Below are positions 1 to 17,360 of a DNA stretch of 64,000 nt, in pieces (within the stretch, counting starts at the first letter, position 1; every line of letters starts with the position of its first letter). Source of the stretch: a plasmid. The position numbers and the translations under genes were made by a program. The DNA lies in sequence record NZ_CP010801.1; one strand, 5' to 3'. A model generated the notes under the pieces. That model saw nothing but the letters and a program-made list of their open reading frames with translations. It did not search any database and was not told where the DNA came from.

Positions 1-95
1 CCATCCTTGCGGGTGCGCCTGCCGAGCCGCAGGATGCGCAGGAGCGGTCAGATGCCCGGTCCGAGCCGACCCAGCAACTGGTCGCGCTAGCTGCC

Positions 96-779
96 GTGCC
101 TGCCGTGGCGTCGGAAGAGTTGGTCTTCGTGCCGCGCGGCTTGCTGACTTCAGCCTGCGACATCATCCGCCGTGCTGGTTATGCAGACAACTGCGTAACG
201 CTGAAAGGACTGCGGACAGCCGCTCTGCAACCTTCCACCCAGCAGCAGGCCGGGCCCAACGCACTGCGCCCAGACTTCACCGGCATCGAAGACATGCGCA
301 TCGGCGATATGACGCCAGCGCAGCGCGACGACAGCAAGGAACTCTGGCTGCGCAACAATCTTGGGTTCATGACGGACTACTACCACGAGCACCTGCAATT
401 CCTGCTACGCCGGTTGGACGAGGCCCGCACCTTGGCCACGTCTGCACGGCCGTCGGGAGACGAACTGCAGGCGGTGCGCGACATGCTCGAAGATGCGCGC
501 GCCGAACTGGACATGGTCCGCAAGGCGCTTGGCGTGGGCGACGAGCCGCATCAGTCGTTGGCAGAGCGCACTCTTCAGGCGGCGTTGAAGGCCGGTCATG
601 CGGCCCCGGGGAAGGACACGGAGCGGCTTGATGCAATCGAAGCTGGAATCGAGCTCAGCCGGCGCGTCAACCCGGATTCCTGGACGGCACGACCATTGTT
701 CAAATCGTGGCCCAAGGGCGCGGAATTCCAGACCGCCCGGGAGGCTATCGACTTTGCCATCAAGCTCAACCAGCATTGA
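96..779 (+). CDS. hypothetical protein (227 aa)
   Basis: Long ORF in a GC-rich frame with its own rho-independent terminator immediately downstream; no recognisable motif. Confidence 0.4.
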   Translation: MPAVASEELVFVPRGLLTSACDIIRRAGYADNCVTLKGLRTAALQPSTQQQAGPNALRPDFTGIEDMRIGDMTPAQRDDSKELWLRNNLGFMTDYYHEHLQFLLRRLDEARTLATSARPSGDELQAVRDMLEDARAELDMVRKALGVGDEPHQSLAERTLQAALKAGHAAPGKDTERLDAIEAGIELSRRVNPDSWTARPLFKSWPKGAEFQTAREAIDFAIKLNQH

Positions 780-786
780 ACCGAAC

Positions 787-820
787 CCGCTGCGCGTCTC
801 AGACGCCAGCGGTTTTTTTT
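787..820 (+). terminator. rho-independent terminator
   Basis: GC hairpin CCGCTGCGCGTC-TCA-GACGCCAGCGG followed by T8, right after the stop of ORF 96-779. Confidence 0.7.
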
Positions 821-885
821 GTCGGGTGTCGGGCAACCAATGCTGAACGCTGGCATTTCGCTGGCAACCGACCAAGGAAAATTGA

Positions 886-1575
886 ATGGACAACCCGAAT
901 ACCGAAGCAACAATTGAGCGCTCGCCCGTGGGCCTGAGGCTCGGTGCGCAAGCACTCGCGGCAGAGATCGCGGAGGCAGTTTTCAAGGATGAGCAGCCAG
1001 AGGCGGGAGGCTGCGATATTGGCGCAGGCATGTTCGGTCCGAACTTCTCAGCCTTGATCCGGAAGATTGCCACCGAATATTTGGCTCGGCCCGCTGCAGA
1101 GGCTACGCTGAATATCCTATCCCGGAAAGAATCGAGGTTCAGGGTTCCGTCCATTGATAGCCCCCACCGAAAATTCTGGGAGCACCTCAAGGCCGGCGGC
1201 CGCGTATGGCGTGACGACCGGATCAACGGCGTCAAGGAATGGCTTGATCTTGAACGGCTCGGAGGCGATGCGAACGAGATCAACCGCTACGGCCACAAAG
1301 ACCTTTCGCTGACCGGCCCTGAGATCGATGTGACGCTGCCGCTTTACGACAGCGACGGCTACGAGCACCATTTCGTGACCCGCAGTACACGCGAGATCGT
1401 GACCAAACGTTCCGGCCTCTTCTGCGTATGGGATGCCAGGACGGGAAGCTGTCTTCGATCAGGCGCTGAAGGGTGCTATCTGGGCAACACGCCGCTTTCA
1501 GACGAAGAGATGGAGCGCCGCAAGCAGGAAGGCGCTCGAATTCTCACTGAGATCCGCGCCGCGGCTGACACCTGA
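886..1575 (+). CDS. hypothetical protein (229 aa)
   Basis: ORF with terminator downstream (1594-1628); no recognisable domain. Confidence 0.4.
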   Translation: MDNPNTEATIERSPVGLRLGAQALAAEIAEAVFKDEQPEAGGCDIGAGMFGPNFSALIRKIATEYLARPAAEATLNILSRKESRFRVPSIDSPHRKFWEHLKAGGRVWRDDRINGVKEWLDLERLGGDANEINRYGHKDLSLTGPEIDVTLPLYDSDGYEHHFVTRSTREIVTKRSGLFCVWDARTGSCLRSGAEGCYLGNTPLSDEEMERRKQEGARILTEIRAAADT

Positions 1576-1593
1576 AGCGTACGACTAATCTAG

Positions 1594-1628
1594 CCCCCCG
1601 CGCATCGCGCCGGGGGGCTTTTTCTTTC
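1594..1628 (+). terminator. rho-independent terminator
   Basis: CCCCCCGCGCATCGCGCCGGGGGG stem followed by CTTTTTCTTTC. Confidence 0.6.
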
Positions 1629-1635
1629 GTCCGCG

Positions 1636-1672
1636 CTCGACAACCAACCCTGAACCCGGCAATTCCGCCGGC
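1636..1672 (+). promoter_or_regulatory. conserved upstream element copy A (CGACAAC-N7-GAAC box + CCGGC/GCCGG hairpin)
   Basis: CTCGACAACCAACCCTGAACCC then hairpin CCGGCAATTCCGCCGG, ending ~20 nt before the ATG at 1693; one of 9 copies in the window. Confidence 0.5.
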
Positions 1673-1692
1673 ACTGAGTTGGGAGAGCGATC

Positions 1693-2199
1693 ATGCAACA
1701 ACCTGTGCAGCAATCGGCCAGTGTTCTGGCTCGCTACCGGACGCGCGGCTGGGCCCGCATCTGCGACAAGGCAGCCGAGCTCGATCCGAAATTTGCGCAA
1801 GTCCTGCGCGAATCGGCGCGGCCGGCGCAAATTGCCTACCAGAAGATCATGGGCCGGCACGAAGGCAATCCGGTGGGCGTCGAGTGCCGCGCCGTCAAAC
1901 GCGAGGCGTGGGCTTTCGTCCTGGCGGATGTCAGCTGTCCCGGTCGATTCCGCATCCAGTATTTCGACCTGGACGGGTTCTCTGGGCATTACGTCCACAA
2001 GACGCTCGAGGAGGCCGTCGAAGACATGGTGACGAGCGGCTACCGCCAGATCGACACCGGCGCTCTTGACCGCGTGGCGGCCACCGAGCGGTGGGCGCTC
2101 GGTGTCAAGCGCTCAGCAATCATGCAGCGGCACCAGTCCGGGATGATCGATTGGGCGACGGCGGTTGGTGAGCTTTCCATCCTGCAGACAAATTCCTGA
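1693..2199 (+). CDS. hypothetical protein (168 aa)
   Basis: ORF immediately 3' of the conserved element; GGGAGAG RBS 7 nt upstream of the ATG. Confidence 0.45.
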   Translation: MQQPVQQSASVLARYRTRGWARICDKAAELDPKFAQVLRESARPAQIAYQKIMGRHEGNPVGVECRAVKREAWAFVLADVSCPGRFRIQYFDLDGFSGHYVHKTLEEAVEDMVTSGYRQIDTGALDRVAATERWALGVKRSAIMQRHQSGMIDWATAVGELSILQTNS

Positions 2200-2272
2200 A
2201 GAACTGCACTGACAAGCTGCACGACTTCTGAATGAAACCGACCGTCCGCGCGCCACCAAGGCACGAGGACAT

Positions 2273-2306
2273 CTCAACAACTCTTGCGGGAAAGCACATC
2301 TTTCCC
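2273..2306 (+). promoter_or_regulatory. conserved upstream element copy B (divergent variant)
   Basis: CTCAACAACTCTTGCGGGAAAG followed by the perfect hairpin GGGAAAG-CACAT-CTTTCCC, ~45 nt upstream of the ATG at 2350. Confidence 0.4.
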
Positions 2307-2349
2307 TCCCTGGGATTGGTGTGCTCAACATGCGAATGAAGGAGCAACA

Positions 2350-3075
2350 ATGAACACCATTTCCAAGAAGGTAGAAGACCTGGTTCTCGGCAATCGCGTC
2401 GACCTCAAGTCGTGCCCGTTTCTCAATAATCACCCCATTGCCGAGAGCGAGTATGCCGTCGTGACCTACATTGAAAGGGCAGTGCCTGGATGCGTCGTCA
2501 TCGGCTATGAGGGCATCGATCACGTGGGCTACCAACTTGGCACCTCTGTCCAGGTGCGCGCACCGAAAGACGTACCCGATCCCATCGTCAAGGTTCACCC
2601 TCTCGGCAAACCGGAAGAATGGGAGGAGTGGCATATCTCCCAGAATCTGACCGATCGGTGGGGCGATCTCAACCACTACGACGCGGACAACAAGCCGCTG
2701 GACCTGCTGGCTGATGATGACGGCCTGCTCGAGCGTCTGGTCAACCAGATGTGGGGCGAATCGACCTTCGTGGTTCGCAAGGATGGCAAGTTCGGCATCC
2801 TGTTCGAGGTCGAGTTTTGCTCGCTGGAGAGCGAGGAACCGGAGAAGGAGAATTCGCCCGACTGGTATGCCACGCTCAAGCCGCACACCGAAGTCGTCAA
2901 GGCATTGCTGGAAGGCATGCATCCGCTGGCCGAGAAGTTTCCCAACGTGCAATTTGCCGTTCCCGACGAGGAAGTGATCATCAACGACCGGCCCGCCGCC
3001 TGGGCGTTTGTACCCGATGGCCTGCTGAACAAGGAACAGCGCAAAGAGCTTGGCAACGCATTGCTTGGCCTCTAG
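2350..3075 (+). CDS. hypothetical protein (241 aa)
   Basis: ORF with GAAGGAG RBS; chosen start is the first ATG after the element. The upstream part of the 2284 ORF lacks an RBS. Confidence 0.45.
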   Translation: MNTISKKVEDLVLGNRVDLKSCPFLNNHPIAESEYAVVTYIERAVPGCVVIGYEGIDHVGYQLGTSVQVRAPKDVPDPIVKVHPLGKPEEWEEWHISQNLTDRWGDLNHYDADNKPLDLLADDDGLLERLVNQMWGESTFVVRKDGKFGILFEVEFCSLESEEPEKENSPDWYATLKPHTEVVKALLEGMHPLAEKFPNVQFAVPDEEVIINDRPAAWAFVPDGLLNKEQRKELGNALLGL

Positions 3076-3087
3076 GTCCACCCCCAG

Positions 3088-3120
3088 CCCCCGCGCAGCT
3101 TTGCTGCCGGGGGTTTTTGT
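3088..3120 (+). terminator. rho-independent terminator
   Basis: CCCCCGCGCAGC-TTTG-CTGCCGGGGG followed by TTTTTGT. Confidence 0.65.
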
Positions 3121-3130
3121 ATTCCCCAGG

Positions 3131-3167
3131 CTCGACAACCACCTCCGAACCCCGGCATTCCGCCGGT
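3131..3167 (+). promoter_or_regulatory. conserved upstream element copy C
   Basis: CTCGACAACCACCTCCGAACCC + hairpin CCGGCATTCCGCCGG, then GAGGAG RBS and the ATG at 3183. Confidence 0.5.
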
Positions 3168-3182
3168 CACGAGGAGATCAAA

Positions 3183-4997
3183 ATGGTTGACGAGTTTCAG
3201 TTTTTCCCCACCCCCGCAGGCCTGGCTGCCCGCATGATCGCCAAGTTCAGCACCCACCCCTGGGGCCGCGACGCTCGCGTGCTCGAGCCCTCGGCCGGTG
3301 ACGGCGCGCTGGTGCGGGCCCTGGTCGACGCAGCAAAAGCAGAGCGCAATGCGTGGATGGTCAAGCATCACACCTACTTCCGCATGGACGACCTGCACGT
3401 CGATTTCATTGAGCTCGACATGGGCAAGCACGACGCCCTCAAATCGATCGATGACGTGCGCGGCGAGGTGATCGGCCTGGACTTCCTTCAATTCTCGGGA
3501 AGCCTGGCAGCCTACACGCACGTTCTGGCCAACCCGCCGTTCGCAGCAGGCGTGCACCACCTGCTGAAGGCCTGGGATGGCCTGTTCGATGGCGAGATCG
3601 TGTGTCTGCTCAACGCCGAAACCATCAAGAACCCGTTCTCGAAGGAGCGCCAGCGCCTCGTGCGCCTGATCGAGGCTCATGGCGACGTGGAGTTCATCCA
3701 GGATGCGTTCAAGGGCGAGGGCGTCGAGCGGGAGGCCGATGTCGAAGTGGCCATTGTCCGTCTTGCGAAGAAGGCAGACTTGCAGCGCGACATCATCGGC
3801 TCGGTGCTGGATAGCCTGGCTGAAGACTCCCTGGCCGAAACGGGGGGCGCCGGCGATGCGCATGCCATCGGCGACGATCGACAGTTGGCGATCCCTGGAG
3901 ACGTGATCGTGCGCACGGAGCGCGCGTTCAAGGCAGCTGTCACCTCCATGCGCGAATGCGTCATAGCTCAGGCGCGCGCGAGCTACGCAGCACGCCTGGT
4001 CGGCCAGACGCTGGCGCAGCGCAATGGCGAGGATAAGGGCGATCCGCAAGGCGACCTCATCCAGACTATCCGTGAAGGCATCGCCAAGGGCTATGACGAG
4101 CTCAAGGATCGGGCATGGTCTGAGGTGCTGCGTTCCACCGAGGTGTCAGCGAAGCTCTCCAGCAAGGCGCAGCAGCGTCTCGAGGCAGACTTCCAGCGCA
4201 TCAAGCGGCTGGACTTCAGTGCCTCCAACGTCTACTCGTTCCTGATCGGTCTGATCGATGCGCGGGGAGACATGCTGGTGCAAATGGCCTGCGAGGTGTT
4301 CGACGAGATCACGAGGTATCACTCGGAGAACAGGGTGTATTACGAAGGTTGGAAGAGCAACGATCGGCACCGCACGGCCGGCTGGCGCATCAAGCACACG
4401 CGATTCATCCTGCCGCACTTCAAGGCTGATTATTCTTGGAGCAAGCGTCCGTCGTACAGCATGGTGCAAAGACTGGCCGACTTCGACAAAGTCTTCGCCG
4501 CCCTGGACGGGAAGGAAGTCTCCAGCATCTATGGTCTCTCCGCCATGTTCGAGCGCGAGTGCGAGAGCTTGGCTCATGGCGAGCGCAGGTCGAGCGCGTA
4601 CTTCGACGTCCGCTGGTATCCCGGAAAGGGGACAGTGCACATCTTCCCGCGCAACCAGCAGATGATGGATCGGCTCAACCGCCTGGTCGGCCGCACGCGG
4701 GACTGGCTGCCGCCGCGCGATGAGATGGTCGCGAAGGACTTCTGGCTCGCCTACGAGCGGGCCGAGAAGTTCGACGAGGAGGTGCGCGCGGAGGCTGCGC
4801 GTATGTCCCCGGGCGTGTCGATAGGTGCTGTCACCGGCCCTGAATGGGGCGACGAGAGCAGGACCACCCGGGCCCAGCATGCAGTGGCCAGCGCGTTCAA
4901 CGCAATCGCTCGCAAGCATGGGCTGGATCCGCTTCCAGCGATCGCTTCATCCCACAAGGAGCCGGAGCAACTTCCACTGCTGGCGGTCGCAGCTTGA
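3183..4997 (+). CDS. N6-adenine DNA methyltransferase, large orphan type (604 aa)
   Basis: N-terminal FFPTP (AdoMet motif I-like) and LANPPF (motif IV, NPPF) are signatures of gamma-class N6-adenine methyltransferases. A ~400-aa C-terminal extension follows and no adjacent restriction gene is present. The start follows terminator + element + RBS, so the 2751 N-terminal extension in the ORF track is rejected. Confidence 0.65.
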   Translation: MVDEFQFFPTPAGLAARMIAKFSTHPWGRDARVLEPSAGDGALVRALVDAAKAERNAWMVKHHTYFRMDDLHVDFIELDMGKHDALKSIDDVRGEVIGLDFLQFSGSLAAYTHVLANPPFAAGVHHLLKAWDGLFDGEIVCLLNAETIKNPFSKERQRLVRLIEAHGDVEFIQDAFKGEGVEREADVEVAIVRLAKKADLQRDIIGSVLDSLAEDSLAETGGAGDAHAIGDDRQLAIPGDVIVRTERAFKAAVTSMRECVIAQARASYAARLVGQTLAQRNGEDKGDPQGDLIQTIREGIAKGYDELKDRAWSEVLRSTEVSAKLSSKAQQRLEADFQRIKRLDFSASNVYSFLIGLIDARGDMLVQMACEVFDEITRYHSENRVYYEGWKSNDRHRTAGWRIKHTRFILPHFKADYSWSKRPSYSMVQRLADFDKVFAALDGKEVSSIYGLSAMFERECESLAHGERRSSAYFDVRWYPGKGTVHIFPRNQQMMDRLNRLVGRTRDWLPPRDEMVAKDFWLAYERAEKFDEEVRAEAARMSPGVSIGAVTGPEWGDESRTTRAQHAVASAFNAIARKHGLDPLPAIASSHKEPEQLPLLAVAA

Positions 4998-5023
4998 CCA
5001 GTAGAACGTCCTTCAGACCAACC

Positions 5024-5062
5024 ACCGCCGCGCCCTACCCAGGGCCGGCGGTGTTTTTTTTG
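5024..5062 (+). terminator. rho-independent terminator
   Basis: CCGCCGCGCCCTACCCAGGGCCGGCGG hairpin followed by TGTTTTTTTT. Confidence 0.65.
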
Positions 5063-5137
5063 CCTACCTTGACGCAATAAACAACACCAATCAAAATACA
5101 AACACATGCAACGTTTGCATGATTTGGAGATAGCGAG
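5063..5137 (+). promoter_or_regulatory. AT-rich promoter region with palindromic operator-like site
   Basis: GC content drops sharply here. Inverted repeat ATGCAA-CGT-TTGCAT at 5106-5120 and GGAGATAGCGAG RBS ahead of the ATG at 5138. Confidence 0.4.
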
Positions 5138-5371
5138 ATGTACATCAACGGAATTTTCAGTCTCTCCGCGCTTGAGCGCGATCTGAACGAAGAGATTGTG
5201 CCGGCACTGAATCTCCCGCCGGATGGACCAGTTGGCACTTGGCTGGATTGGGTCGCGCAGGAGAAAGCCAATCGCCGACCGGACATTGCGTTCTACGACA
5301 TCACTGTCGACGAGATCGAGGCGCAGATCCTGGAGGAGACCGGGCAAAGCGCTTCGAACCGAGTTAACTGA
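5138..5371 (+). CDS. hypothetical protein (77 aa)
   Basis: First ORF of a same-strand gene run 5138-7508. Confidence 0.35.
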   Translation: MYINGIFSLSALERDLNEEIVPALNLPPDGPVGTWLDWVAQEKANRRPDIAFYDITVDEIEAQILEETGQSASNRVN

Positions 5372-5392
5372 ATACAACGAGGGAAATTCAAG

Positions 5393-5647
5393 ATGGGACA
5401 AAACAACCAGGGGCAGAACACCCCCTTGTTCTCCGGGACAGGTTGGGAAGCCTATTCGGAGGGCACAGACGCGGACCCCTTTATTCGCGTGTACGACGAG
5501 CTCGGCGAGGGCATGTTCCGACTGCCCAGCTTGAACTGGTCGCATGAGCAAGTTGGTTGCGTGGTGTCCGTTTATAAGCATGGACTGAGTGACGGCATCC
5601 AGCTTGGCAAAGCTTCGGAACAGAAGCGCCTGGCATCGCAAACGTAG
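5393..5647 (+). CDS. hypothetical protein (84 aa)
   Basis: ORF with GAGGGAAATTCAAG upstream of the ATG. Confidence 0.35.
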   Translation: MGQNNQGQNTPLFSGTGWEAYSEGTDADPFIRVYDELGEGMFRLPSLNWSHEQVGCVVSVYKHGLSDGIQLGKASEQKRLASQT

Positions 5648-5664
5648 GACACAGGGGAGAACAC

Positions 5665-6060
5665 TTGAACGCACGAGAGCGCCTGGTGGCCGCTGCTGAG
5701 TGGCTGGGCTGGAACGATCAAGACTTGAGCGCAGGCTTGCGTAATGCGTTTGATGGCCTGCGCCTGTATGACTACGCGCAGGCGCGTCGCGACCTCCCAG
5801 CCTTGGCTGATATGTGGCGGCCGGATGAGCGTATCGATGCGATCGGTTATGACCCCATGGCCCGCCAGTACCACGCTGCAGATACGAGCGGTGCGAACGA
5901 GGCGGCTATGGCGCTGGGAGTCGCCCGAGACCTCCTGAAATCGATCGCGTTCGTCAAGACCGAGGGCGATGCGAAGCGCCTCATCGCCGTCATTGACGAA
6001 ATCGTTGAGCGCGCCCCCGGCGCACAAAGCGCAACCGCCAGCGACGAGGTTGCCGCATAG
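5665..6060 (+). CDS. hypothetical protein (131 aa; non-ATG start)
   Basis: ORF in the same-strand run; the start codon is TTG per the ORF track, so the exact start is uncertain. Confidence 0.3.
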   Translation: MNARERLVAAAEWLGWNDQDLSAGLRNAFDGLRLYDYAQARRDLPALADMWRPDERIDAIGYDPMARQYHAADTSGANEAAMALGVARDLLKSIAFVKTEGDAKRLIAVIDEIVERAPGAQSATASDEVAA

Positions 6061-6077
6061 AGAGGGCTCGGAAAATC

Positions 6078-6647: not shown

Positions 6648-6648
6648 C

Positions 6649-9720: not shown

Positions 9721-9736
9721 GGTGATCTCCTGATGG

Positions 9737-10199: not shown

Positions 10200-10200
10200 G

Positions 10201-10389: not shown

Positions 10390-10390
10390 G

Positions 10391-10633: not shown

Positions 10634-10650
10634 CAATCTCTCCTGAAGGG

Positions 10651-10688
10651 CCGGCGGAATGCCGGTGTTCGGGAGTAGTTGCGTCGTA
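10651..10688 (-). promoter_or_regulatory. conserved upstream element copy F
   Basis: Gene sense: CGACGCAACTACTCCCGAACACC + hairpin CCGGCATTCCGCCGG, then TTCAGGAGAG and the ATG at 10633. Confidence 0.5.
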
Positions 10689-10694
10689 TGGCTG

Positions 10695-10738
10695 AAAGAA
10701 ATCCCCCGGCAGCGTGATGCTGCTCGGGGGAGTGGTGA
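10695..10738 (-). terminator. rho-independent terminator (minus strand)
   Basis: Minus strand: CCCCCGAGCAGCATCACGCTGCCGGGGG followed by ATTTCTTTC; lies 3' of gene 10740-11528. Confidence 0.55.
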
Positions 10739-10739
10739 A

Positions 10740-11528
10740 TCAAGCGTTCTGTGCGGAATTCGCGGGCGCCCGGCGGTTCTCTTCAGTGAAGATGACTGCA
10801 CGCTCATTCGCATGTTCCAGAAGGCCAAGCCAGCCTTCGTCTCCAGTCAGCGAACGATGCTGATCGTGCTGGCCATCGTTGCCCGAGATGTGGATCTCGA
10901 TGCAAAGCGGGTTGGCAAGCAGATCGCGCACCAGGCCCTCGTCCCAGCAGCCCGACTTGTGCGCCAGTATTTGCAGGTGCGACAGATCCAGGGCGTAAGG
11001 GATCCCGCTCTCGGCCAGCGCCGCGTATTCCGCCCAGGTGGCCACGAGATAGTGCTCGTCGCCGACCGGGTGGGGCCCGCGCGGGTACATGCCCTCGATA
11101 CCAACGTCGCAGCCCATGATGTCGGATAGGACGTCGACGTTGCGCGCCAGGTCGTACAGCGTTGCATTGCGGCGCAGTCCGGCGTGGACCGTGTATGCGC
11201 AGGCCCCCATCGCCCGGCTGACCTTGCCCAATTCGACGTAGTAATCCATGTGCCGGTTGAGCGTGCTCAGGTCTGCCAACGATGTCCACCCCGCCACGCG
11301 TGCGTTGGCGTGCAGCCGAAACCGCGTATTCGGGTAGGCAGCTGCCAGCGCCCTGGCCGATTCCACGTCCAGCGTGCCCGCGTTCTGCGGACAGATCTGA
11401 ACGTGGTCAAGCCGGATCACTCCGGCATCAGCCAGTGACTGGGCCGCCTGCATCGCCTGCGCCACCGAAAACCCGGGAAAGGCCCCGAGCGCCAGGTTGG
11501 GCGTGACTGTGCAGAGGGCGGCGCTCAT
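10740..11528 (-). CDS. xylose-isomerase-like TIM-barrel (AP endonuclease family 2 / sugar-phosphate isomerase-epimerase fold) protein
   Basis: C-terminal HISGNDGQHDQHRSLTGDEGWLG parallels the Endo IV / Xyl-isomerase-like metal-site motif H-x-NDs...D-x-H-SLGeG. A YTVHAG segment and LDLSHLQILAH (compare CLDTCHAF) are also present. Length 262 aa. Confidence 0.5.
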   Translation of the reverse strand: MSAALCTVTPNLALGAFPGFSVAQAMQAAQSLADAGVIRLDHVQICPQNAGTLDVESARALAAAYPNTRFRLHANARVAGWTSLADLSTLNRHMDYYVELGKVSRAMGACAYTVHAGLRRNATLYDLARNVDVLSDIMGCDVGIEGMYPRGPHPVGDEHYLVATWAEYAALAESGIPYALDLSHLQILAHKSGCWDEGLVRDLLANPLCIEIHISGNDGQHDQHRSLTGDEGWLGLLEHANERAVIFTEENRRAPANSAQNA

Positions 11529-12076
11529 TGTTCTGCCCCCGCGGTGGCAGCCTCCTCGACTCCGAACAACTCGTCCGGCTCATACTCCGTCGTATCCGAT
11601 TCCGTGTAGTACACGGTATGTACGAAGGACAGGAGCTTGCCGGTCTGCAGGTCAAAGTAGGCCTCGCCGCTGCCGCCATCGCCGTTTTCCCAGCCGGAGC
11701 GGTCAGTCAGCTCGATTAGGTTATTGAGGATGTGCTCTGCTGCGTCTTCAACTGACATCGTTTTCTGCGCGACAGTTGTTTGCGCTCCGTAATTGCCCGC
11801 AGCGTCAAAGGTGTAGCAGGTTGAGCAAACCGTCATCTCGCACTGCGCCTGGACGATCGCGTCAGACAGAGGGTGGAGCGCACCCTCATTACCCACGACG
11901 GTCACCTCTTCGATGCCGCCGCTGTCGCCGCCGCCCGAATAGAAGATCTTCAGTTGTGCAGCTGCCGGTTGGCCATCTTCGCCGATGACCGCGCCGGTCA
12001 GCCGACGCACCGCTTCTGCTGTCGAGAGCGCTGCGATGTTCGAGAGGATGATTTGCTTCAGTTCGGTGTTGCCCAC
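11525..12076 (-). CDS. hypothetical acidic protein (183 aa)
   Basis: GTG start 7 nt after an AAGGAG RBS (alternative TTG at 12094); ATGA overlap with the downstream TIM-barrel gene; acidic tail VEEAATAGAEQ. Confidence 0.4.
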   Translation of the reverse strand: MGNTELKQIILSNIAALSTAEAVRRLTGAVIGEDGQPAAAQLKIFYSGGGDSGGIEEVTVVGNEGALHPLSDAIVQAQCEMTVCSTCYTFDAAGNYGAQTTVAQKTMSVEDAAEHILNNLIELTDRSGWENGDGGSGEAYFDLQTGKLLSFVHTVYYTESDTTEYEPDELFGVEEAATAGAEQ

Positions 12077-12096
12077 GAAAAACTCCTTGCTCAAGT

Positions 12097-12132
12097 CCCG
12101 GGAAATCCGGGGGTTCCCAAGTAGTTGCTTTG
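12097..12132 (-). promoter_or_regulatory. conserved upstream element copy G
   Basis: Gene sense: CAAAGCAACTACTTGGGAACCCC + hairpin CCCGGATTTCCCGGG, then the AAGGAG RBS. Confidence 0.45.
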
Positions 12133-12261
12133 GGCCGAGCGTAAAAAGCGGACGCGTCGATGCTGCTCAGGGCGGATGCCCAAAATTCAAGCAGCCCAGT
12201 CGAACCCGCCTGCGGCGCGGGTCTTGCTTCTCGTGGGGGCCACTTGTTCGCCAAAACTGTG

Positions 12262-12294
12262 GATAAATATTGTTCTTTTGTTGCGCGTGTTTAT
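12262..12294 (+). promoter_or_regulatory. sigma70-type promoter candidate for dnaB
   Basis: TTGTTG ... 17 nt ... TATAAT (12289-12294) inside an AT-rich patch; very short leader before the ATG at 12305. Confidence 0.35.
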
Positions 12295-12304
12295 AATTCC
12301 GTGA

Positions 12305-13693
12305 ATGAACACATCGCGCGACTTCCAACTCGATGCATTGAAGGTTCCGCCGCATTCGGTGGAAGCCGAACAATCAGTTCTTGGCGGCCTGCTACTGGAC
12401 AACGCTGCCTGGGACCGCATTGCCGACTTCATCAATGAGCAGGACTTCTACCGGCACGACCACCGGCTGATCTTCCACAACATTGGACGGCTGATCGGGC
12501 AGGCCAAGCCGGCGGACGTCGTCACCGTCTTCGAGATGCTGCAGGCCGCAGGCAAGGCTGAGGATGTGGGCGGTCTGCCATATCTGAATGCGCTCGCTCA
12601 GAACACGCCCAGTGCGGCCAACATTCGCCGCTACGCCGAGATCGTGCGCGATCGCAGCGTCTTGCGCCGCTTGGTGACCGTGGCGGATGAGATCTCCGCC
12701 GGCGCCTTCAACCTGCAGGGGCGCGACGTGCGCCAGCTGCTGGACGAGGCCGAGACCAAGGTGTTCTCAATCGCCGAAGAGGGTTCGCGCGGGCAGAAGG
12801 GCTTCCTTGAGATCCAGCCATTGCTCACGCAGGTGGTCGAGCGAATTGACGATCTCTACCATCGCGACAGTCAGACCGACATCACGGGTGTCGCCACTGG
12901 CTTTGTCGATCTCGATCGGATGACCAGCGGCATGCAGCCGGGTGACCTCATCATCGTGGCCGGACGCCCATCCATGGGAAAAACCGCCCTGGCGCTCAAT
13001 ATCGGCGAGCACGTGGCGGTCGACCAAGGCCTGCCAGTTGCCGTGTTCTCGATGGAGATGGCGGGCACGCAGCTGGCCATGCGTATGCTGGGATCTGTCG
13101 GCCGGTTGGATCAGCACCGGCTGCGTACCGGCCGGCTGCGTGACGATGACTGGCCCCGCCTGACGCACGCCATCAGCAAAATGAGTGACGCTCAGCTGTT
13201 CATCGATGAGACCCCCGCGCTCAACCCAATGGAGTTGCGCGCGCGGGCCCGGCGCCTGGCGCGCCAGAGCGGCCAACTCGGCCTGATCATCATCGACTAC
13301 CTGCAGCTGATGTCGGGATCGTCTAATGGCGAGAACCGCGCAACTGAGATCTCGGAAATCTCCCGTTCCCTCAAGAGCCTGGCCAAGGAGCTCAACTGTC
13401 CAGTGATCGCCTTGTCGCAGCTGAACCGCAGCCTTGAGCAGCGGCCGAATAAGCGGCCGGTCATGTCGGATCTACGTGAGTCCGGGGCCATCGAGCAGGA
13501 CGCCGATGTCATCCTCTTCATCTACCGCGATCAGGTGTACAACCCGGACTCCCAGGACAAGGGCACCGCCGAAATCATCATCGGCAAACAGCGCAACGGC
13601 CCCATCGGCACCGTACGCCTCACGTTCCTGGGCGAACATACCAAGTTCGAGAACTTCGCAGGTCGGAACGCGTTCGAGGACGCGGAGTCCTGA
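12305..13693 (+). CDS. dnaB: replicative DNA helicase DnaB
   Basis: LKVPPHSVEAEQSVLGGLLLDN, NTPSAANI, Walker A GRPSMGKTALAL, IIIDYLQLM, SDLRESGAIEQDADVI and GKQRNGPIGTV match DnaB family motifs throughout; 462 aa. Confidence 0.85.
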   Translation: MNTSRDFQLDALKVPPHSVEAEQSVLGGLLLDNAAWDRIADFINEQDFYRHDHRLIFHNIGRLIGQAKPADVVTVFEMLQAAGKAEDVGGLPYLNALAQNTPSAANIRRYAEIVRDRSVLRRLVTVADEISAGAFNLQGRDVRQLLDEAETKVFSIAEEGSRGQKGFLEIQPLLTQVVERIDDLYHRDSQTDITGVATGFVDLDRMTSGMQPGDLIIVAGRPSMGKTALALNIGEHVAVDQGLPVAVFSMEMAGTQLAMRMLGSVGRLDQHRLRTGRLRDDDWPRLTHAISKMSDAQLFIDETPALNPMELRARARRLARQSGQLGLIIIDYLQLMSGSSNGENRATEISEISRSLKSLAKELNCPVIALSQLNRSLEQRPNKRPVMSDLRESGAIEQDADVILFIYRDQVYNPDSQDKGTAEIIIGKQRNGPIGTVRLTFLGEHTKFENFAGRNAFEDAES

Positions 13694-13769
13694 TTCACAG
13701 GACCCCAGAGCCGCAAGCGCGGCTCGCGCGCGCCGCGGCGGGCATTTTCGATTGACGGGAGACCCGAAA

Positions 13770-13826
13770 GAGAAAACCCGCCGGAGTCTTGCGACTCTCG
13801 GCGGGTGATGTGGTGTGCAAAATTCA
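13770..13826 (-). terminator. terminator (minus strand), one of two related copies
   Basis: Minus strand: CACCCGCCGAGAGTCGCAAGACTCCGGCGGGTTTTCTCTTTCGGG. Near-identical unit at 14508-14562. Plus-strand form is GAAAACCCGCCGG-GTCT...CGGCGGGTG-TGTGGTGT. Confidence 0.5.
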
Positions 13827-13831
13827 GCGGT

Positions 13832-14007
13832 CAGGCAATGTGCGCCGACTTGCGGTCTTCCCGCGATTCCTGGGAGCGATGCAGCGCAATCTCCCTATCC
13901 GTGCGGCGCAACTCAGCGCGGATTCCCTTGAATGCCCCGGTGAGCGGCGCGAAGTACATCCGCAAGCTGTCGCGAAACACTCGACGAACATTGATCTGGG
14001 ATTTCAT
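13832..14007 (-). CDS. hypothetical small basic protein (~58 aa)
   Basis: MKSQINVRRVFRDSLRMYFAPLTG...; its ATG overlaps the stop of the upstream gene (ATGA coupling). Confidence 0.3.
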
Positions 14008-14258
14008 TTGAACATCTCCTTGACCAGCCCAACACTCGTTCGCCCCAAATAGAGAGCGAACAGCGTCAGGTCAAGCAAAAGCATAGCATGTGCCGTCAAC
14101 TCGATGGCTTTGTGGGTAAATTCACTGACATGCAATGCAGCCACCCAGGCCGCTGCAAGGTCAAGACCCACCGCAATTCCGCCGAGCACCAGGAAAATCG
14201 TAGTCCCGAAAAGCATGTGCAGCAACTGCTCTTTGACCAATCCATTGTGATTCGTCAT
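14004..14258 (-). CDS. small membrane protein (84 aa, two predicted TM helices; holin-sized)
   Basis: MTNHNGLVKEQLLHMLFGTTIFLVLGGIAVGLDLAAAWVAALHV... behind a GGGAGGTG RBS; hydrophobic segments. Confidence 0.4.
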   Translation of the reverse strand: MTNHNGLVKEQLLHMLFGTTIFLVLGGIAVGLDLAAAWVAALHVSEFTHKAIELTAHAMLLLDLTLFALYLGRTSVGLVKEMFK

Positions 14259-14314
14259 TGTGCGTAGCACCTCCCTCTTGCCCCAATTGCCGCCCCGGGA
14301 TGGGATGGCCTCTT

Positions 14315-14336
14315 GGGTTCGCAAGTGGTTGTTGCG
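14315..14336 (-). promoter_or_regulatory. conserved upstream element copy H (box only; hairpin divergent)
   Basis: Gene sense: CGCAACAACCACTTGCGAACCC, ~55 nt upstream of the ATG at 14258. Confidence 0.4.
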
Positions 14337-14507
14337 TACGGGGAAGAGAAAAACGGCATGTCGGCCTGGGATGAGGCCATGCCAAGATCCGGCTACCCCC
14401 CCGATGATGGGCTATGGGTAATGAAAGCCGCGCCGCTTATGCGATTTGGTAATTTAGTGTCAGGCAGTTCTTGGTACGTTGACCAAGACGTCCCGCACGG
14501 TCCCGTA

Positions 14508-14562
14508 AAACGAAAACCCGCCGGCGTCTGATGACGCGAGGCGGGTGTGGTGTACAGATTTG
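14508..14562 (-). terminator. terminator (minus strand), second copy of the 13770 unit
   Basis: Minus strand: CACACCCGCCTCGCGTCATCAGACGCCGGCGGGTTTTCGTTTTAC. Confidence 0.5.
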
Positions 14563-14567
14563 CGATC

Positions 14568-14700
14568 AGTGCTTGCGGCCAAATTCCATTCCGGCCTGCC
14601 ATGCCCCCTTCAGCATGGCAATCATGCCGGCTGGGGTCTCTGTGAAGCCTTGCCAGAAGGCTTTTGATCCGATCTTGATCAGTTCGAGCGTTGTGTCCAT
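14568..14700 (-). CDS. hypothetical small protein (43 aa)
   Basis: MDTTLELIKIGSKAFWQGFTETPAGMIAMLKGAWQAGMEFGRKH with a TGGAGTG RBS; lies between a hairpin and the terminator. Confidence 0.3.
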
Positions 14701-14749
14701 GGATCACTCCAAGGGGATACGCGGGGCATCCCCGATAAATTAGGCGAGT

Positions 14750-15025
14750 TCACGCCTCGTCGAGGATGTTTTTGATTTCCTTGATAGCTTTGGCACCACT
14801 CAAAATGACCCAGCTCATGCTGACATAGAAGTCCGCACCGAAGGCAATCGCTTCCAGGGCATCCACGAACAGCAAGTAAGCGCTCGGCAAGCCGTTAGCA
14901 ATTGCGTGCCCCAGAAAGTGCAGCCCGCGCACGCCTCCCAGCATGATTGCGAAGACCACCAAGGCCCCGACACTGTCGCCAAAAAATACTAAGGCAACCC
15001 TCCAAAGTTGGTTGAATTTCTTCAT
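14750..15025 (-). CDS. small membrane protein (91 aa, 2-3 TM helices; holin-sized)
   Basis: MKKFNQLWRVALVFFGDSVGALVVFAIMLGGVRGLHFLGHAIANGLPSAYLLFV...; RBS GGGTGGAGAA. Confidence 0.45.
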   Translation of the reverse strand: MKKFNQLWRVALVFFGDSVGALVVFAIMLGGVRGLHFLGHAIANGLPSAYLLFVDALEAIAFGADFYVSMSWVILSGAKAIKEIKNILDEA

Positions 15026-15056
15026 TTCTCCACCCGTTCAAAGTTATGTTTTGTCT

Positions 15057-15105
15057 GGCATCCCCCCATGGGACGCCGATAATGGTTCGAGAGTGGTTGT
15101 CGAAC
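15057..15105 (-). promoter_or_regulatory. conserved upstream element copy I
   Basis: Gene sense: GTTCGACAACCACTCTCGAACC followed by the perfect 9-bp-arm hairpin GGCGTCCCATGGGGGGATGCC, then the RBS. Confidence 0.45.
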
Positions 15106-15109
15106 AGTA

Positions 15110-15730
15110 GAGGGAAAAAACCAGCCGGCCAGCAAAGGCAGGCACCGCGCAGGCGCGGGTAAGGTCGGCACCATCGGTGACGACCGGCGCGCTCGGGCGC
15201 CAGATCACGCACAAGAGAGGGGAGAGGGAAGGGTGTCCCCCAACCACATCGCAGGCCGCCCGAAGGGCGTGCGCGCGCAGCGCGTCTCGCCCGCAGGGCG
15301 TTTTGAAGCGAGCGGAGCGAGCGCCCCATCGGCGCAGCCGGAACAATCGGCACAGCCGAAGCGATGGCGCCCAGCGCCTCCCCTTGGCGCGCATGCGCCT
15401 TTTCTGCCCCCCGCCCGAAGGGCGTCGGGGGGGCTAAGGGTGCCGCAGTGCGCTGTGTGTGGGGGGTTTCAGGACAGGCGGGGAGGCCGAATGGCGCTTC
15501 GCCAGTGGGGGCCTTCATGTGCCAGCTGAGAAGTGGGCTGCAAGTATGCCCGCGTGGTGGCGGCGCCGGAGACCGGCAATCATTCGAAGCGAGATAGGAA
15601 ACCCATGCGCGGGTCAAGGAAGCCTTGCGTTGGCTGCCAGCTTTATTCAGGCCGTCATGCAGGCAATCTGGCACCTCTCTCCCGAGCAGAGCGGCGGGGC
15701 GTTGCGCATCGGGAGAAAGGCCGGCTCGCT
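15110..15730. repeat. ~600-bp GC-rich noncoding stretch with REP-like hairpins
   Basis: No coherent ORF in either strand (all frames are low-complexity Arg/Pro/Ala). Repeated CGCCCGAAGGGCG hairpins near 15258 and 15410, plus G and C runs. Confidence 0.3.
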
Positions 15731-15731
15731 A

Positions 15732-16295
15732 TCAGTAGGGTGCGCCGCCGCTGCCCGTCATTTTGGCGGCCTCAGGGAACGTGGTTACGTATCCCGGCTG
15801 GCCAGGAAGCGGCAGAGCAGCTGGTGCCTCAGGCTGTGCAACGCGCGACGTGACCGGATAGTTGAGCGCAGCAGGACTGGGCGCCTGTGAAACGCTATTT
15901 ACTGGGGCCGGTGCTTGATCAGGAGCCTCATGGTCCATCAAATTCTGCACGGCAATGATCGACGCGCGTTTGACCAACACCGCGCGATCACGGTTTGGGC
16001 CCAGGGAGACACCTGAGTATCGCGTGGTGACAGGTCTAGTCGCGTCAGAGTTCTTCATCACTGGCGACACGTATGCGATTGCTGTCGTGACGGCCTGTTC
16101 TGGGAATGAAAACTGGTTGTTGAAGACCACAATCTCGTATTTGCCGTGCGGATACCTGTGGCAAAACTCCTCCGTCACGACTTCCCTAAACCATGATGAA
16201 TCGCCCTCGCCATAGACTTGGACCATATACCGACATGCCTGTGCCGAGATGGGCGCGAGGAGCGCCAGAGCCAACGGTGCCAATTTTTTGAGCAT
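15732..16295 (-). CDS. exported Pro-rich protein (187 aa)
   Basis: Signal peptide MLKKLAPLALALLAPISAQA; C-terminal Pro/Ala-rich region. Confidence 0.5.
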   Translation of the reverse strand: MLKKLAPLALALLAPISAQACRYMVQVYGEGDSSWFREVVTEEFCHRYPHGKYEIVVFNNQFSFPEQAVTTAIAYVSPVMKNSDATRPVTTRYSGVSLGPNRDRAVLVKRASIIAVQNLMDHEAPDQAPAPVNSVSQAPSPAALNYPVTSRVAQPEAPAALPLPGQPGYVTTFPEAAKMTGSGGAPY

Positions 16296-16412
16296 TGAAT
16301 TTTCCTGTTTCGATCGTTGATGGAGACTAACGCTCCAATGGCGACAACCTGGCGGCTAAAGCGCCGAGCACGAATCCACTGACTGCTATCGTAAAGTTGT
16401 CAACGCTTCATT

Positions 16413-17141
16413 GTGTCGTACAATTACGCGCAACGACAACCATTCATTGTTACGATGCCAGCAATTGCCCTGAGCGCCTGCATACTCGCCGCCTCCAGTA
16501 ATTACGGCATCCCTGTGGCAACTATTGAGCATGTTATTGACTCGGGCACCAAACAGCCCGGCGCGATCGGCCCGATGGGCATCCCTCAGGGGTGGTTGCC
16601 CTACCTTTCGCGCTATGGATTTGATGAGCAGAAAGTCAGGACAGACGACTGCTCAGGCGTTGTCGCAGGGACATGGATCCTCGCTTACACCCAGCGAATG
16701 CAGACGGTCATTGGCAAGACGGAGACCGACAAGAAAATCCTCCAACTGGCTCAGCCGTGGATGCCGGCGATCAACTGGATTTCAGCGAAGGCGCAAATCG
16801 ATCCCCGCCTGGTCGTCGCAGTCATCTACCAGGAGAGCAAGTTCCAGCCTGCGGCTGTTTCAGGTGCTAACGCCATCGGCCTGATGCAACTCATGCCTGC
16901 AACGGCGCGCAGTCTGGGCGTCAACCCGCGAGACCCTGCGCAGAACCTGTGGGGCGGAATCTGGTATCTGGCCAACCTCATGCGGGCCTATCACGGCAAT
17001 GTCGGTCTGGCTTTGGCCGCCTACAACGCCGGTCCTGGCGCGGTGTCGCGCTATGGCGGCATTCCTCCCTACCGCGAGACACAGGACTATGTGCCGCAGG
17101 TGCTTCACTGGTACAGGTCTGTTTCTTACGCAAAAAACTAA
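16413..17141 (+). CDS. lytic transglycosylase (SLT domain; VirB1/phage-type)
   Basis: ESKFQPAAVSGANAIGLMQLMPATA and AYNAGPGAV are the SLT family catalytic motifs. Local GC is lower than in the surroundings; the start may instead be the internal ATG near 16455. Confidence 0.7.
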   Translation: MSYNYAQRQPFIVTMPAIALSACILAASSNYGIPVATIEHVIDSGTKQPGAIGPMGIPQGWLPYLSRYGFDEQKVRTDDCSGVVAGTWILAYTQRMQTVIGKTETDKKILQLAQPWMPAINWISAKAQIDPRLVVAVIYQESKFQPAAVSGANAIGLMQLMPATARSLGVNPRDPAQNLWGGIWYLANLMRAYHGNVGLALAAYNAGPGAVSRYGGIPPYRETQDYVPQVLHWYRSVSYAKN

Positions 17142-17226
17142 TATGTTGCGCAACTTGATATGTGCTGATACAGTACATATCTGTAACACCTGCACTTACC
17201 CTCATTGACCCAAACAGATGGGTTAC

Positions 17227-17252
17227 CCCGAATTTCGGGGCCTTTTTCAAGG
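17227..17252 (+). terminator. rho-independent terminator
   Basis: Perfect palindrome CCCCGAAATTCGGGG followed by CCTTTTTC. Confidence 0.6.
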
Positions 17253-17278
17253 ACCTTCCCCAGAGGATCCTTGCAAAA

Positions 17279-17360
17279 GGTCGGTTCGATTCCGGCTCGT
17301 TGGTCGAGGTCTGGTGAGAAGGGAGCTCGGTTCGATTCCGGGTGATTGGGGGAAGCGGTC
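17279..17360 (+). repeat. two tandem tRNA 3'-end fragments (T-arm + acceptor 3' strand): att-like remnants
   Basis: GGTCGGTTCGATTCCGGCTCGTTGG and GCTCGGTTCGATTCCGGGTGATTGG each contain the GGTTCGATTCC T-loop. No D-arm or anticodon arm lies upstream, so neither is an intact tRNA. Confidence 0.5.

Follow-up and report, generated by a model that had tools for sequence, protein, structure and literature searches.

We analyzed a 64,000-nt stretch (the window; one strand, 5′ to 3′, numbered from its first nucleotide) of the plasmid sequence record NZ_CP010801.1. We consider it rather probable that its left part, positions 1–18644, is the backbone of a Ralstonia plasmid of about 190 kb with Trb-type conjugation genes, and that 12 units, each of which is preceded by the same compact cassette, make up one regulon of establishment-type genes. 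Ten of the 12 cassettes are found within the window (809–15124), and two just upstream of position 1. An initial annotation, made from the nucleotides without database searches, had described positions 1–17360 as the interior of an integrative or phage-derived element that ends at tRNA gene fragments and has its own regulatory signature. The integrative, tRNA-based part of this description is wrong. The regulatory signature was confirmed in the form of a defined cassette, and of all that was found we consider this signature the most interesting.

A cassette shared by 12 units

The elements of the cassette follow each other in a constant order, i.e. a terminator hairpin, a T-run with the consensus TTTTTCTT, a spacer of 13 nt, the box RCAAC-N7-GAAY, a GC-rich hairpin of 5–8 bp, 10–25 nt, the Shine-Dalgarno sequence, and the start codon. 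The box consists of two (C/G)AAC half-sites that are 11 nt apart, i.e. one helical turn. The hairpin follows directly after the box, and its sequence varies while the pairing is kept. In an alignment of 20 copies, CAAC, GAA, and three positions of the T-run are invariant (2 bits each), and the distance between the T-run and the box is fixed.

A covariance model was built from 22 copies, including all 10 sites of the window. Within the window it returned only these 10 known sites, with scores of 33.7–59.2 bits (all of them belong to the training set). On the plus strand, the cassettes at 809–870 (47.3 bits; T-run, GCAACCAATGCTGAAC, and a CUGGC/GCUGG hairpin with two G.U pairs), 1616–1677 (54.5 bits), and 3111–3172 (59.2 bits) precede a gene for a 229-aa protein (886–1575), two genes for proteins of 168 and 241 aa (1693–2199 and 2350–3075), and a DNA methyltransferase gene, respectively. 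On the minus strand, the cassette at 7969–8030 (37.9 bits, with a divergent hairpin) is found upstream of the gene for an 81-aa basic protein (7634–7879), that at 8626–8688 (56.6 bits) upstream of a lipoprotein gene, and that at 9732–9794 (37.4 bits; the spacing is N8, and the stem CCCGG/CCGGG) upstream of the gene for a 328-aa protein. On the same strand, the cassette at 10645–10706 (51.5 bits) precedes an operon for proteins of 80, 62, and 124 aa, that at 12091–12152 (44.9 bits, with a CCCGG/CCGGG stem) the operon for a DUF6878 protein and a TIM-barrel protein, that at 14295–14356 (41.8 bits) the genes for an 84-aa and a 58-aa protein, and that at 15059–15124 (33.7 bits) the gene for a 91-aa protein. 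The two cassettes upstream of the window were found as covariance model matches in the related contig L004 (7088–7149 and 8464–8525), before genes for proteins of 404 and 450 aa. The 450-aa gene, which has no assigned function, starts 573 nt before the window according to the gene calls on L001–L006, and its 3′ part occupies positions 1–779 (plus strand).

For comparison, the occurrences of the box and of the terminators were determined in shuffled sequences. The pattern RCAAC-N7/8-GAAY is found 11 times in the first 16 kb, versus 0.89 ± 0.94 times (maximum 5) in 300 dinucleotide shuffles, and the remaining 48 kb contain two matches. Of the 11 matches, 10 are intergenic and co-oriented with the next gene. 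An energy-based scan for hairpins with a T-run identified 23 sites, versus 2–12 in 20 shuffles; about 14 of the 23 are intergenic and co-oriented with the preceding gene, and a few more are visible by eye. A stricter scan with a terminator consensus gave no enrichment (12 found versus 15.2 expected). The claim that the units are separately terminated is thus borne out by the energy-based scan, the consensus scan showing no excess.

The hairpin was analyzed for covariation. In the alignment, 83% of the hairpin cells are paired, versus 70% in column shuffles, and none of 500 shuffles reached 83%. The number of cells changed on both sides is 15, versus 6.8 expected (again 0 of 500 shuffles). In controls with a slid 3′ arm, the pairing was 27–47%. 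At least eight different stems occur, including CCGGC/GCCGG, CUGGC/GCUGG, CCCGG/CCGGG, CCCAGCA/UGCUUGGG, and CUUGCGC/GCGUGAG. On the antisense strand, folding is much poorer for those stems that contain G.U pairs, suggesting a structure at the RNA level.

Beyond this plasmid, the cassette is present in five or more diverged groups of contigs. L020, an 11.7-kb contig with 58% GC, contains nine full cassettes (all in the training set) and two partial ones outside it. It encodes a glycine-zipper protein, PcfJ, a DUF6878 protein, a homologue of the TIM-barrel protein, a second DUF6878 protein, and a DUF4942 methyltransferase; its proteins are 37–59% identical to those of the window, and the gene order is different. 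Further matches outside the training set were obtained in the metagenome contigs L102 and L142 (second site; 37.2 bits), L065 (37.4 bits), and L138 (25.6 bits), and in L016 (22.5 bits), in which the methyltransferase gene is preceded by a GAAC-N7-GAAC variant. Several terminator stems are related between copies (GCAGC-nTTn-GCTGC-CGGsGG-TTTTTCTT in L020 and in the window copies at 3135 and 10682), so that the whole unit of about 100 nt recurs.

A scan of genome contigs for the motif plus hairpin yielded one 2-kb contig of a metagenome-assembled genome (L012), to which the covariance model gave a weak partial match of 16.5 bits. A metagenome scan with TTTTTCTT-N13-RCAAC-N7-GAACC returned at least 119 stretches; this pattern is T-rich and unspecific, and most of the stretches are chance matches in AT-rich contigs. 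Among the metagenome matches listed, only L065, L102/L142, and L138 looked genuine. The neighborhoods of homologues of the methyltransferase and of the SLT lytic transglycosylase (L013–L017, L022, and L023) contained neither the cassette nor the T-arm-like repeat described below, with the exception of the weak or variant cassette in L016. As far as we could find, the cassette and its proposed regulon have not been described previously and are common to a small family of related elements.

Two loci that resemble integrative and conjugative elements (ICEs), L019 and L021, have a different module upstream of many small genes, in which T-run-CAACC is followed by one long GC hairpin or two and, in many cases, by a further T-run just before the ribosome-binding site. 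Our observations suggest that a cassette-style punctuation of genes is common in this gene pool.

The plasmid backbone and its genes

Relatives were found by exact-protein look-ups, which gave contigs of 72–187 kb from many assemblies. Positions 1–18644 are collinear with the related contigs, at 99.8–100% identity. The protein names on the carrying contigs are 'MULTISPECIES [Ralstonia]', R. insidiosa, and R. thomasii, and the block protein AJW47585.1 is annotated as '(plasmid) [Ralstonia mannitolilytica]' at NCBI. The longest carrying contig has 190,542 bp, and contigs >200 kb were absent among the 155 and 112 collection blocks that hold two of the proteins. The NCBI label and the sizes of the carrying contigs are indirect evidence for an extrachromosomal replicon.

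In the relatives, the region upstream of position 1 encodes a small methyltransferase, a helix-turn-helix (HTH) protein, a 581-aa protein, and, about 4 kb from the window, a DnaC/IstB-like ATPase, as well as three proteins without assigned function. The HTH protein, the 581-aa protein, and the DnaC-like loader, together with DnaB within the window, make up the replication-type module. Downstream of the SLT gene, the relatives have genes for a DUF559/Vsr-like protein, HU, and a TraR/DksA zinc finger, and then TrbB/TrbC/TrbD/TrbE-like genes. These mating-pair (type IV secretion) genes are contiguous with the block and encode a T2SSE ATPase (TrbB-like), two small proteins, and a VirB4_TrbE_N protein. 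In the window, the backbone continues with the genes for the DUF559/Vsr-like endonuclease-fold protein and the HU-like DNA-binding protein (17573–18369, plus strand; gene calls and Pfam), and the trb part has been displaced by an insertion at 18645; a KfrA-like gene follows the backbone. Judged from this gene order, positions 1–18644 appear to be a plasmid backbone located between replication-type genes and Trb mating-pair genes, i.e. an ordinary kind of object. The description as the interior of a poorly characterized mobile element was therefore appropriate, the element being a conserved plasmid backbone.

Megablast of positions 1–17400 against plasmids gave a match only at dnaB, with 74–83% identity. 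A protein search of the GTDB representatives with a 364-aa open reading frame (ORF; 8734–9828) found no relatives; this query is partly non-coding, the true start being at 9720. The TrbE N-terminus gave no match at E ≤ 1e−30 in a tblastn search of PLSDB, and the plasmid family could therefore not be named. The family is sequenced but effectively uncharacterized.

Several near-identical plasmids carry deletions or insertions in the block. Positions 2042–4031 are missing in L008, and positions 7690–8850 are missing in L011. In L007, a 1.2-kb insertion of the IS3 family (IS407-like; 2219–3418 of that contig) is located at about 5723–5726 of the window, within the gene for a 131-aa protein; its terminal repeats begin with TGACCTGC, and its transposase is frameshifted. 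The affected genes are thus dispensable for the survival of the plasmid, which fits establishment or accessory roles without proving them.

Fragments of the plasmid proteins have also been deposited as E. coli, S. aureus, B. subtilis, Enterobacter, Neisseria, and Klebsiella, on contigs of 200–600 bp, and these are likely Ralstonia DNA that contaminates public assemblies. Bacteria of the Ralstonia pickettii group are opportunists of hospital water, and other sequencing projects seem to be contaminated with it or its DNA. Recognition of one widespread plasmid helps to flag such contamination.

Genes were called with a codon-usage model and checked against the gene calls on the related contigs, which resulted in about 27 genes in the first 18.6 kb. 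Four family libraries, i.e. Pfam, NCBIfam, PHROGs, and PADLOC, were run on the block proteins. In agreement with the initial annotation, which had called nearly every gene unrecognizable, most of the block's roughly 25 genes (1–17141) have no family match. The matches are limited to DUF4942 plus methyltransferase, DnaB, a weak glycine zipper, DUF6878, SLT, and two PHROGs without known function.

The methyltransferase gene (3183–4997, plus strand) encodes a protein of 604 aa with a C-terminal DUF4942 domain (E = 4e−46, Pfam) and methyltransferase matches in PHROGs and PADLOC. Its translation contains the motifs EPSAGDG (AdoMet motif I) and NPPF, which, together with DUF4942, characterize it as a putative N6-adenine-type DNA methyltransferase. 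No restriction enzyme gene is adjacent, and the large orphan methyltransferase had been correctly recognized. Full-length homologues with 51–65% identity are present in varied mobile elements. Orphan methyltransferases are among the most prominent functions of leading regions and can protect incoming DNA (PMC11541004).

The gene for the acidic DUF6878 protein (11525–12094, minus strand) overlaps at its end with the start of the gene for the TIM-barrel protein (262 aa; 10740–11528, minus strand) by 4 nt. An AlphaFold model of the latter (pLDDT 93.1, pTM 0.91) had its top Foldseek matches in the PDB with sugar epimerases, endonuclease IV, and the peptide-modifying TglH (E 1e−7 to 1e−5, TM 0.55–0.64). 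Ten residues are invariant, i.e. H73, H115, E145, D181, H184, E211, H213, D222, H224, and E249. The protein is thus modeled as a xylose-isomerase-like TIM-barrel metalloenzyme with a His/Asp/Glu metal site, and PF01261 matches some of its homologues. In order and spacing, the residues presumably match the nine metal-binding residues of endonuclease IV (Nfo) from E. coli, although an hhalign comparison with an Nfo sequence gave nothing; phmmer and profile searches against PDB sequences were uninformative. The DUF6878/TIM-barrel pair is conserved across plasmids and ICE-like elements (L018–L021). In ICE-like loci, it recurs beside genes for Antirestrict (ArdB/KlcA), RadC, DUF3275, DUF6094, PcfJ, and SNF2.

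The initial annotation had considered the block a plausible home for defense or anti-defense functions. PADLOC, applied to ten proteins, gave only domain-level matches to MTase_II and mad2, all on 3183–4997, and thus found no defense system and nothing beyond the methyltransferase domain. ArdA, ArdB, ArdC, PsiB, and SSB had no match among the block proteins scanned. The case for such cargo is circumstantial, and comes from the neighborhood of the DUF6878/TIM-barrel pair in other elements.

Further proposals of the initial annotation could be compared with the family matches and translations. DnaB, a plasmid-borne replicative helicase (12305–13693, plus strand; TATAAT just upstream), and the SLT lytic transglycosylase (16455–17141, plus strand) both have family matches. 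The two holin-sized membrane proteins are indeed hydrophobic, with 84 and 91 aa, and the exported Pro-rich protein is present, with 187 aa (15732–16295, minus strand). The glycine-zipper lipoprotein (164 aa; 8119–8613, minus strand), which has a homologue in L020, does contain an LTGC lipobox, while its zipper match (E = 3.8e−4) is below the Pfam cut-off. For an excisionase-like HTH protein, Pfam gave no support at E ≤ 1.

The remaining genes have no assigned function. The 364-aa ORF mentioned above was shortened to a gene for a 328-aa protein (8734–9720, minus strand), because a terminator and a cassette sit within the longer ORF. Also on the minus strand are the three-gene operon for proteins of 80, 62, and 124 aa (9825–10633), the two small genes for the 84-aa membrane protein and a 58-aa basic protein (13831–14258), and the genes for the 91-aa membrane protein and a 44-aa protein (14566–15025), all based on gene calls and translations. 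An operon without a cassette comprises six genes for small, mostly acidic proteins of 77, 84, 131, 189, 100, and 178 aa (5138–7508, plus strand). It has a sigma-70-like promoter (5069–5097, TTGACG-17-CAAAAT), downstream of which the inverted repeat CATGCAA-N3-TTGCATG (5105–5121) looks like a separate repressor operator.

The SLT gene also has a good sigma-70-like promoter (16397–16424, TTGTCA-16-TACAAT), with 14-nt direct repeats on both sides, CAACGCTTCATTGT and CAACCATTCATTGT, at a distance of 36 nt (16397–16450). The conjugation system probably has its VirB1-type enzyme in this protein, because its gene is located upstream of the trb genes in the relatives. The region 15026–15731 (706 nt, 66% GC) has no gene call in most relatives and a 268-aa ORF called in one; it contains three CCGCCCGAAGGGCGT-like hairpin repeats (15256, 15287, and 15411). 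Rfam also gave a sub-threshold match to the Burkholderia sRNA ncS54 (8020–8113, minus strand; 26.4 bits, the gathering score being 43; E = 0.025); it coincides in part with the terminator region that separates two units and probably has no meaning.

The T-arm-like repeat and the accessory DNA

Two 26-nt direct repeats with T-arm-like hairpins (17278–17303 and 17324–17349, plus strand; 85% identity, 46-nt spacing) contain GGTTCGATTCCGG. They had been taken for tandem fragments of a tRNA T-arm and acceptor stem, at which the block would end at 17360 and at which integrations would have accreted. The direct repeat and its hairpins are present, but the tRNA identity was not supported. ARAGORN with default settings predicted no tRNA in the 64-kb window or in the flanking loci of L001, L004, L009, and L011 (within 10 kb on either side), and Rfam gave no tRNA match at 17278–17349 at E ≤ 10. 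At pseudogene thresholds, ARAGORN produced five models in 700 nt, of 95 nt each, with mismatched acceptor stems and unpaired extra loops, one of which takes the second 'T arm' as an anticodon arm. The T-arm-like hairpin is the only arm of a cloverleaf that is present. The implied 5′ strands of the acceptor stems, CCAACGA and CCAATCA, are atypical as starts of bacterial tRNAs.

The sequences around the repeats were also compared with those of the relatives. Across 17142–17572, five relatives are identical or have two indels, and the collinearity runs on to 18644. The block thus does not end at 17360, the repeats are part of a conserved intergenic region, and there is no break of synteny and no flanking att duplication. 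Conservation of the block in relatives without such a duplication is what the initial annotation itself had named as contradicting its view. A search of the relatives beyond position 1 (10 kb) revealed neither an integrase gene nor an intact tRNA gene, and the gene calls that cover the stretch between 10 kb upstream of position 1 and trbE include no integrase. Positions 1–17400 had no megablast match in 50,697 phage records, and PHROGs gave no phage structural or lysis function among the block proteins, its matches in this comparison being confined to methyltransferase families and three families without known function. NCBIfam models for ICEs of the PFGI-1 class had no matches, and an ICEclc/PFGI-1-type island, an idea prompted by DUF4942 and DnaB, was dropped.

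Two alternative explanations of the repeats were weighed. An integrative or phage-derived island that accreted at a tRNA gene, with the repeats as att remnants at its end, would be compatible with the two occurrences of GGTTCGATTCC, the canonical T-loop sequence, each in a stem of 5 bp, with the formation of both hairpins in the minimum-free-energy fold, and with two tyrosine recombinase genes elsewhere in the window (45757–46950 and 55503–57224). These genes are, however, located in the accessory mosaic and not near the repeats, and the nonsensical relaxed ARAGORN models, the unbroken synteny, the plasmid label of the replicon, and the negative phage searches all argue against the island, which we regard as extremely unlikely. 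A GGTTCGATTCC hairpin by itself is no evidence of a tRNA att site. Alternatively, the repeat could be a functional element, i.e. a structured RNA between two terminators or a set of protein-binding iterons. It is placed between a terminator-like hairpin (17226–17250) and a strong hairpin with a T-run (17533–17568), and it is perfectly conserved in all relatives. However, the relatives are about 99.9% identical overall, so that this conservation is uninformative, the folding is no better than that of shuffles (z = −0.89 for the plus strand and −1.47 for the minus strand), diverged relatives with SLT homologues lack the repeat, and it has no Rfam match. A functional element of this kind seems highly improbable.

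The true break with the relatives is at 18644/18645, within a traR/dksA-like gene. The 5′ part of this zinc-finger gene (18415–18644, plus strand) is cut at the junction, while in the relatives a 165-aa gene and TrbB/C/D/E come next. The accessory DNA starts with G/GGGTAGTCGTCCTTTCCGTGCAAAATCTGGCGGTTT (18645–18684, plus strand), which presumably resembles a terminal repeat of the Tn3 family; the window contains no inverted partner of it. A direct repeat of 28 nt, sub-terminal in position, is located at 18653–18680 and 18738–18765. To the right of the junction follow a KfrA-like gene, a cnrYXH-CBA-type nickel/cobalt efflux system, chrA, a superoxide dismutase gene, regulators, a second KfrA-like gene, recombinases, a Tn3 transposase, a group II intron, and an IS30-type transposase, showing that the plasmid carries a mosaic with nickel/cobalt and chromate resistance.

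The metal-resistance cluster (20006–30110) encodes a CnrY/NccY anti-sigma factor, an extracytoplasmic function (ECF) sigma factor, a TolC-like protein, a CzcB/NccB-like protein, a CzcA-type RND protein, ChrA, superoxide dismutase, and a 321-aa protein without family match. Its layout presumably resembles that of the cnr/chr region of Cupriavidus pMOL28. The two genes with a KfrA_N domain are located at 18890–19882 and 42494–43591 (both minus strand). A mobile mosaic (45757–57224) contains the tyrosine recombinase gene 45757–46950, a Tn3-family transposase gene (47444–50443, minus strand), the RNA domain of a group II intron (51892–52014, minus strand; Rfam, 64.3 bits), an IS30-type transposase gene (53334–54362), and a DUF3701 integrase gene (55503–57224). 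The two recombinase genes have a stretch of 118 nt with 78% identity in common.

Proposed function of the cassette and comparison with known systems

We propose that the cassette is an insulated module of terminator, promoter-operator, and leader. Its upstream terminator would isolate each unit, RCAAC-N7-GAAY would be recognized by a single DNA-binding factor common to all units (a plasmid regulator or else an alternative sigma factor), and the hairpin would form a 5′-leader structure in the mRNA. All units, with genes for envelope proteins, for small acidic proteins, for the orphan methyltransferase, and for the DUF6878/TIM-barrel pair, would then belong to one regulon. Half-sites that are one helical turn apart have the geometry of tandemly binding regulators. 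Promoter readings were fitted by hand on the 20 aligned copies, and readings of the box as a sigma-70, sigma-54, or ECF promoter (including the hrp-box), as an antisense promoter, as a site for integration host factor, or as attC were rejected by these fits.

Several observations weigh against the proposed regulon. A sigma-70 scan and the hand fit found no −10 hexamer with A−11 and T−7 at a distance of 16–18 nt. The sigma-54 pattern GG-N10-GC is inconsistent (two copies have a spacing of +1, and others lack the GC), and there is no conserved ECF −10 element but only a loose GCAWT 16–17 nt after CAAC/GAAC. A candidate regulator was not identified, and the promoter and regulon functions are deduced from the sequence. 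The fixed distance of the T-run and the partly homologous terminator stems could reflect descent from a duplicated repeat. The difference between sense and antisense folding is not significant overall (Wilcoxon p = 0.16). The units are arranged in two opposed orientation blocks, unlike in a classical leading region, and neither oriT nor a relaxase gene was seen in the region covered, which includes the 10-kb flanks in the relatives. Moreover, no known defense or anti-defense family was matched in the block proteins. The plasmid is represented neither in PLSDB (only similarity at the level of dnaB) nor among the GTDB species representatives, so that its replicon status is based on one NCBI label and contig sizes.

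If the cassettes were selfish or merely inherited intergenic repeats, similar to REP/BIME or CUP repeats, they would have spread by duplication and recombination, termination would be their only activity, and there would be no shared regulator. The related terminator stems within L020 and the window copies at 3135 and 10682, the recurrence of the entire unit of about 100 nt beyond the box, and the different gene order around the cassettes in different elements are compatible with this possibility. However, every copy in the plasmid region is intergenic and co-oriented, with a distance of 40–60 nt to the start codon in most copies, the 16-nt box is invariant at CAAC and GAA among elements with proteins that are only 37–59% identical while the flanks diverge, and the hairpin contains compensatory changes. 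Co-orientation, an invariant box, and compensatory changes are signs of selection on function, and we regard a pure repeat family as unlikely. Another possibility is read-through from few promoters into long transcripts, in which the box and the hairpin would represent a nut/put-like antitermination element or an RNA element for processing or stability, by which the polymerase would get past the many terminators or the mRNA would outlast them. The lack of a fitting promoter consensus and the RNA-like character of the hairpin, with G.U pairs on the sense strand only, would be explained, and the layout of box, spacer, and hairpin presumably resembles that of boxA-boxB. In L020, several cassette hairpins or second hairpins are followed by a T-run before the ribosome-binding site and are thus leader-terminator-like. 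In contrast, the leader hairpins of the Ralstonia plasmid lack T-runs, and the cassette comes after a strong terminator, where the polymerase would already have been released. In addition, two opposed gene blocks would require at least two entry promoters, none of which was identified, and no NusG/RfaH/Q/N-like protein is found among the proteins scanned. Read-through thus appears quite unlikely to us, and one regulon controlled by a shared factor is the explanation that we prefer.

Only as a tentative and rather unlikely extension, the cassette might be a portable 'insulated expression unit' of a kind not described before, common to a family of plasmids and ICE-like elements (probably betaproteobacterial) and read by a dedicated factor, e.g. 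an element-encoded regulator or an unusual sigma factor, instead of by sigma-70 rules. With its own terminator, box, and leader, each gene could be shuffled between elements as a self-sufficient module, which would explain the different gene orders of the Ralstonia plasmid and L020 with unchanged cassettes. The cassette offers a concrete handle on about 20 plasmid genes without assigned function. If one factor controls the 12 units, its identification would show when the genes are needed, e.g. immediately following transfer, and would point to those that are candidates for an anti-restriction or establishment function. The DUF6878/TIM-barrel pair is a specific candidate, because it recurs beside antirestriction genes in other elements.

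A precedent for plasmid establishment genes under repeated upstream motifs is the Reg576 regulon of p576. The Reg576 repressor binds dual heptamers at four promoters, behind which are putative establishment genes; these probably become de-repressed jointly once the plasmid has been transferred, and one of them counteracts restriction (PMC6294495). The p576 motifs (TTATCCC, two copies) flank clear sigmaA −35/−10 boxes, and the repressor, of the ribbon-helix-helix type, is known (PMC6294495). As in this Bacillus plasmid, mostly uncharacterized plasmid genes are organized in small units with a common short direct-repeat motif before each of them. In contrast to Reg576, there are 12 units here, no recognizable sigma-70 promoter and no identified regulator, and the cassette also comprises an upstream terminator at a fixed position and a leader hairpin that covaries.

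Two further systems of conjugative plasmids are comparable in part. The CUP repeats, reportedly described by Delver and Belogurov in 1997, are said to define an ArdK-controlled regulon within the IncN plasmid pKM101's leading region. There, too, a repeated upstream module is said to precede several small operons, with anti-restriction and unassigned genes. The CUP repeats are reportedly several hundred bp long, enterobacterial, and confined to a leading region of a single orientation next to oriT, whereas the cassette is unrelated to them in sequence, and the genes here have both orientations. In the kil-kor regulon of IncP-1 plasmids (RK2), the kla, klc, kle, and kfrA backbone operons, which encode small proteins without known function, are co-regulated through shared operators, the KorA, KorB, and KorC operators being palindromes over sigma-70 promoters. 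A KfrA-like gene and Trb-type transfer genes are found nearby also in the plasmid analyzed here, but Kor proteins or operators were not found, and, with no PLSDB match for TrbE, a relationship to IncP-1 is not detectable.

Similar to the anti-defense islands of leading regions (PMC11541004), the block combines an orphan methyltransferase and many small acidic proteins in a plasmid context. It differs from these islands in that no known anti-defense family, SSB, PsiB, or Frpo-like single-stranded DNA promoter was found, and in that the genes are distributed over both strands. Integron arrays also consist of small unassigned genes that are separated by a structured repeat, with a unit order that differs between elements. 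However, IntI was absent among the proteins scanned and the genes called in the flanks, and the cassette has no inverted RYYYAAC/GTTRRRY core sites. Unlike the repeats of integron arrays, the cassette is positioned 5′ of each gene, beside the ribosome-binding site, and it occurs in two orientations.

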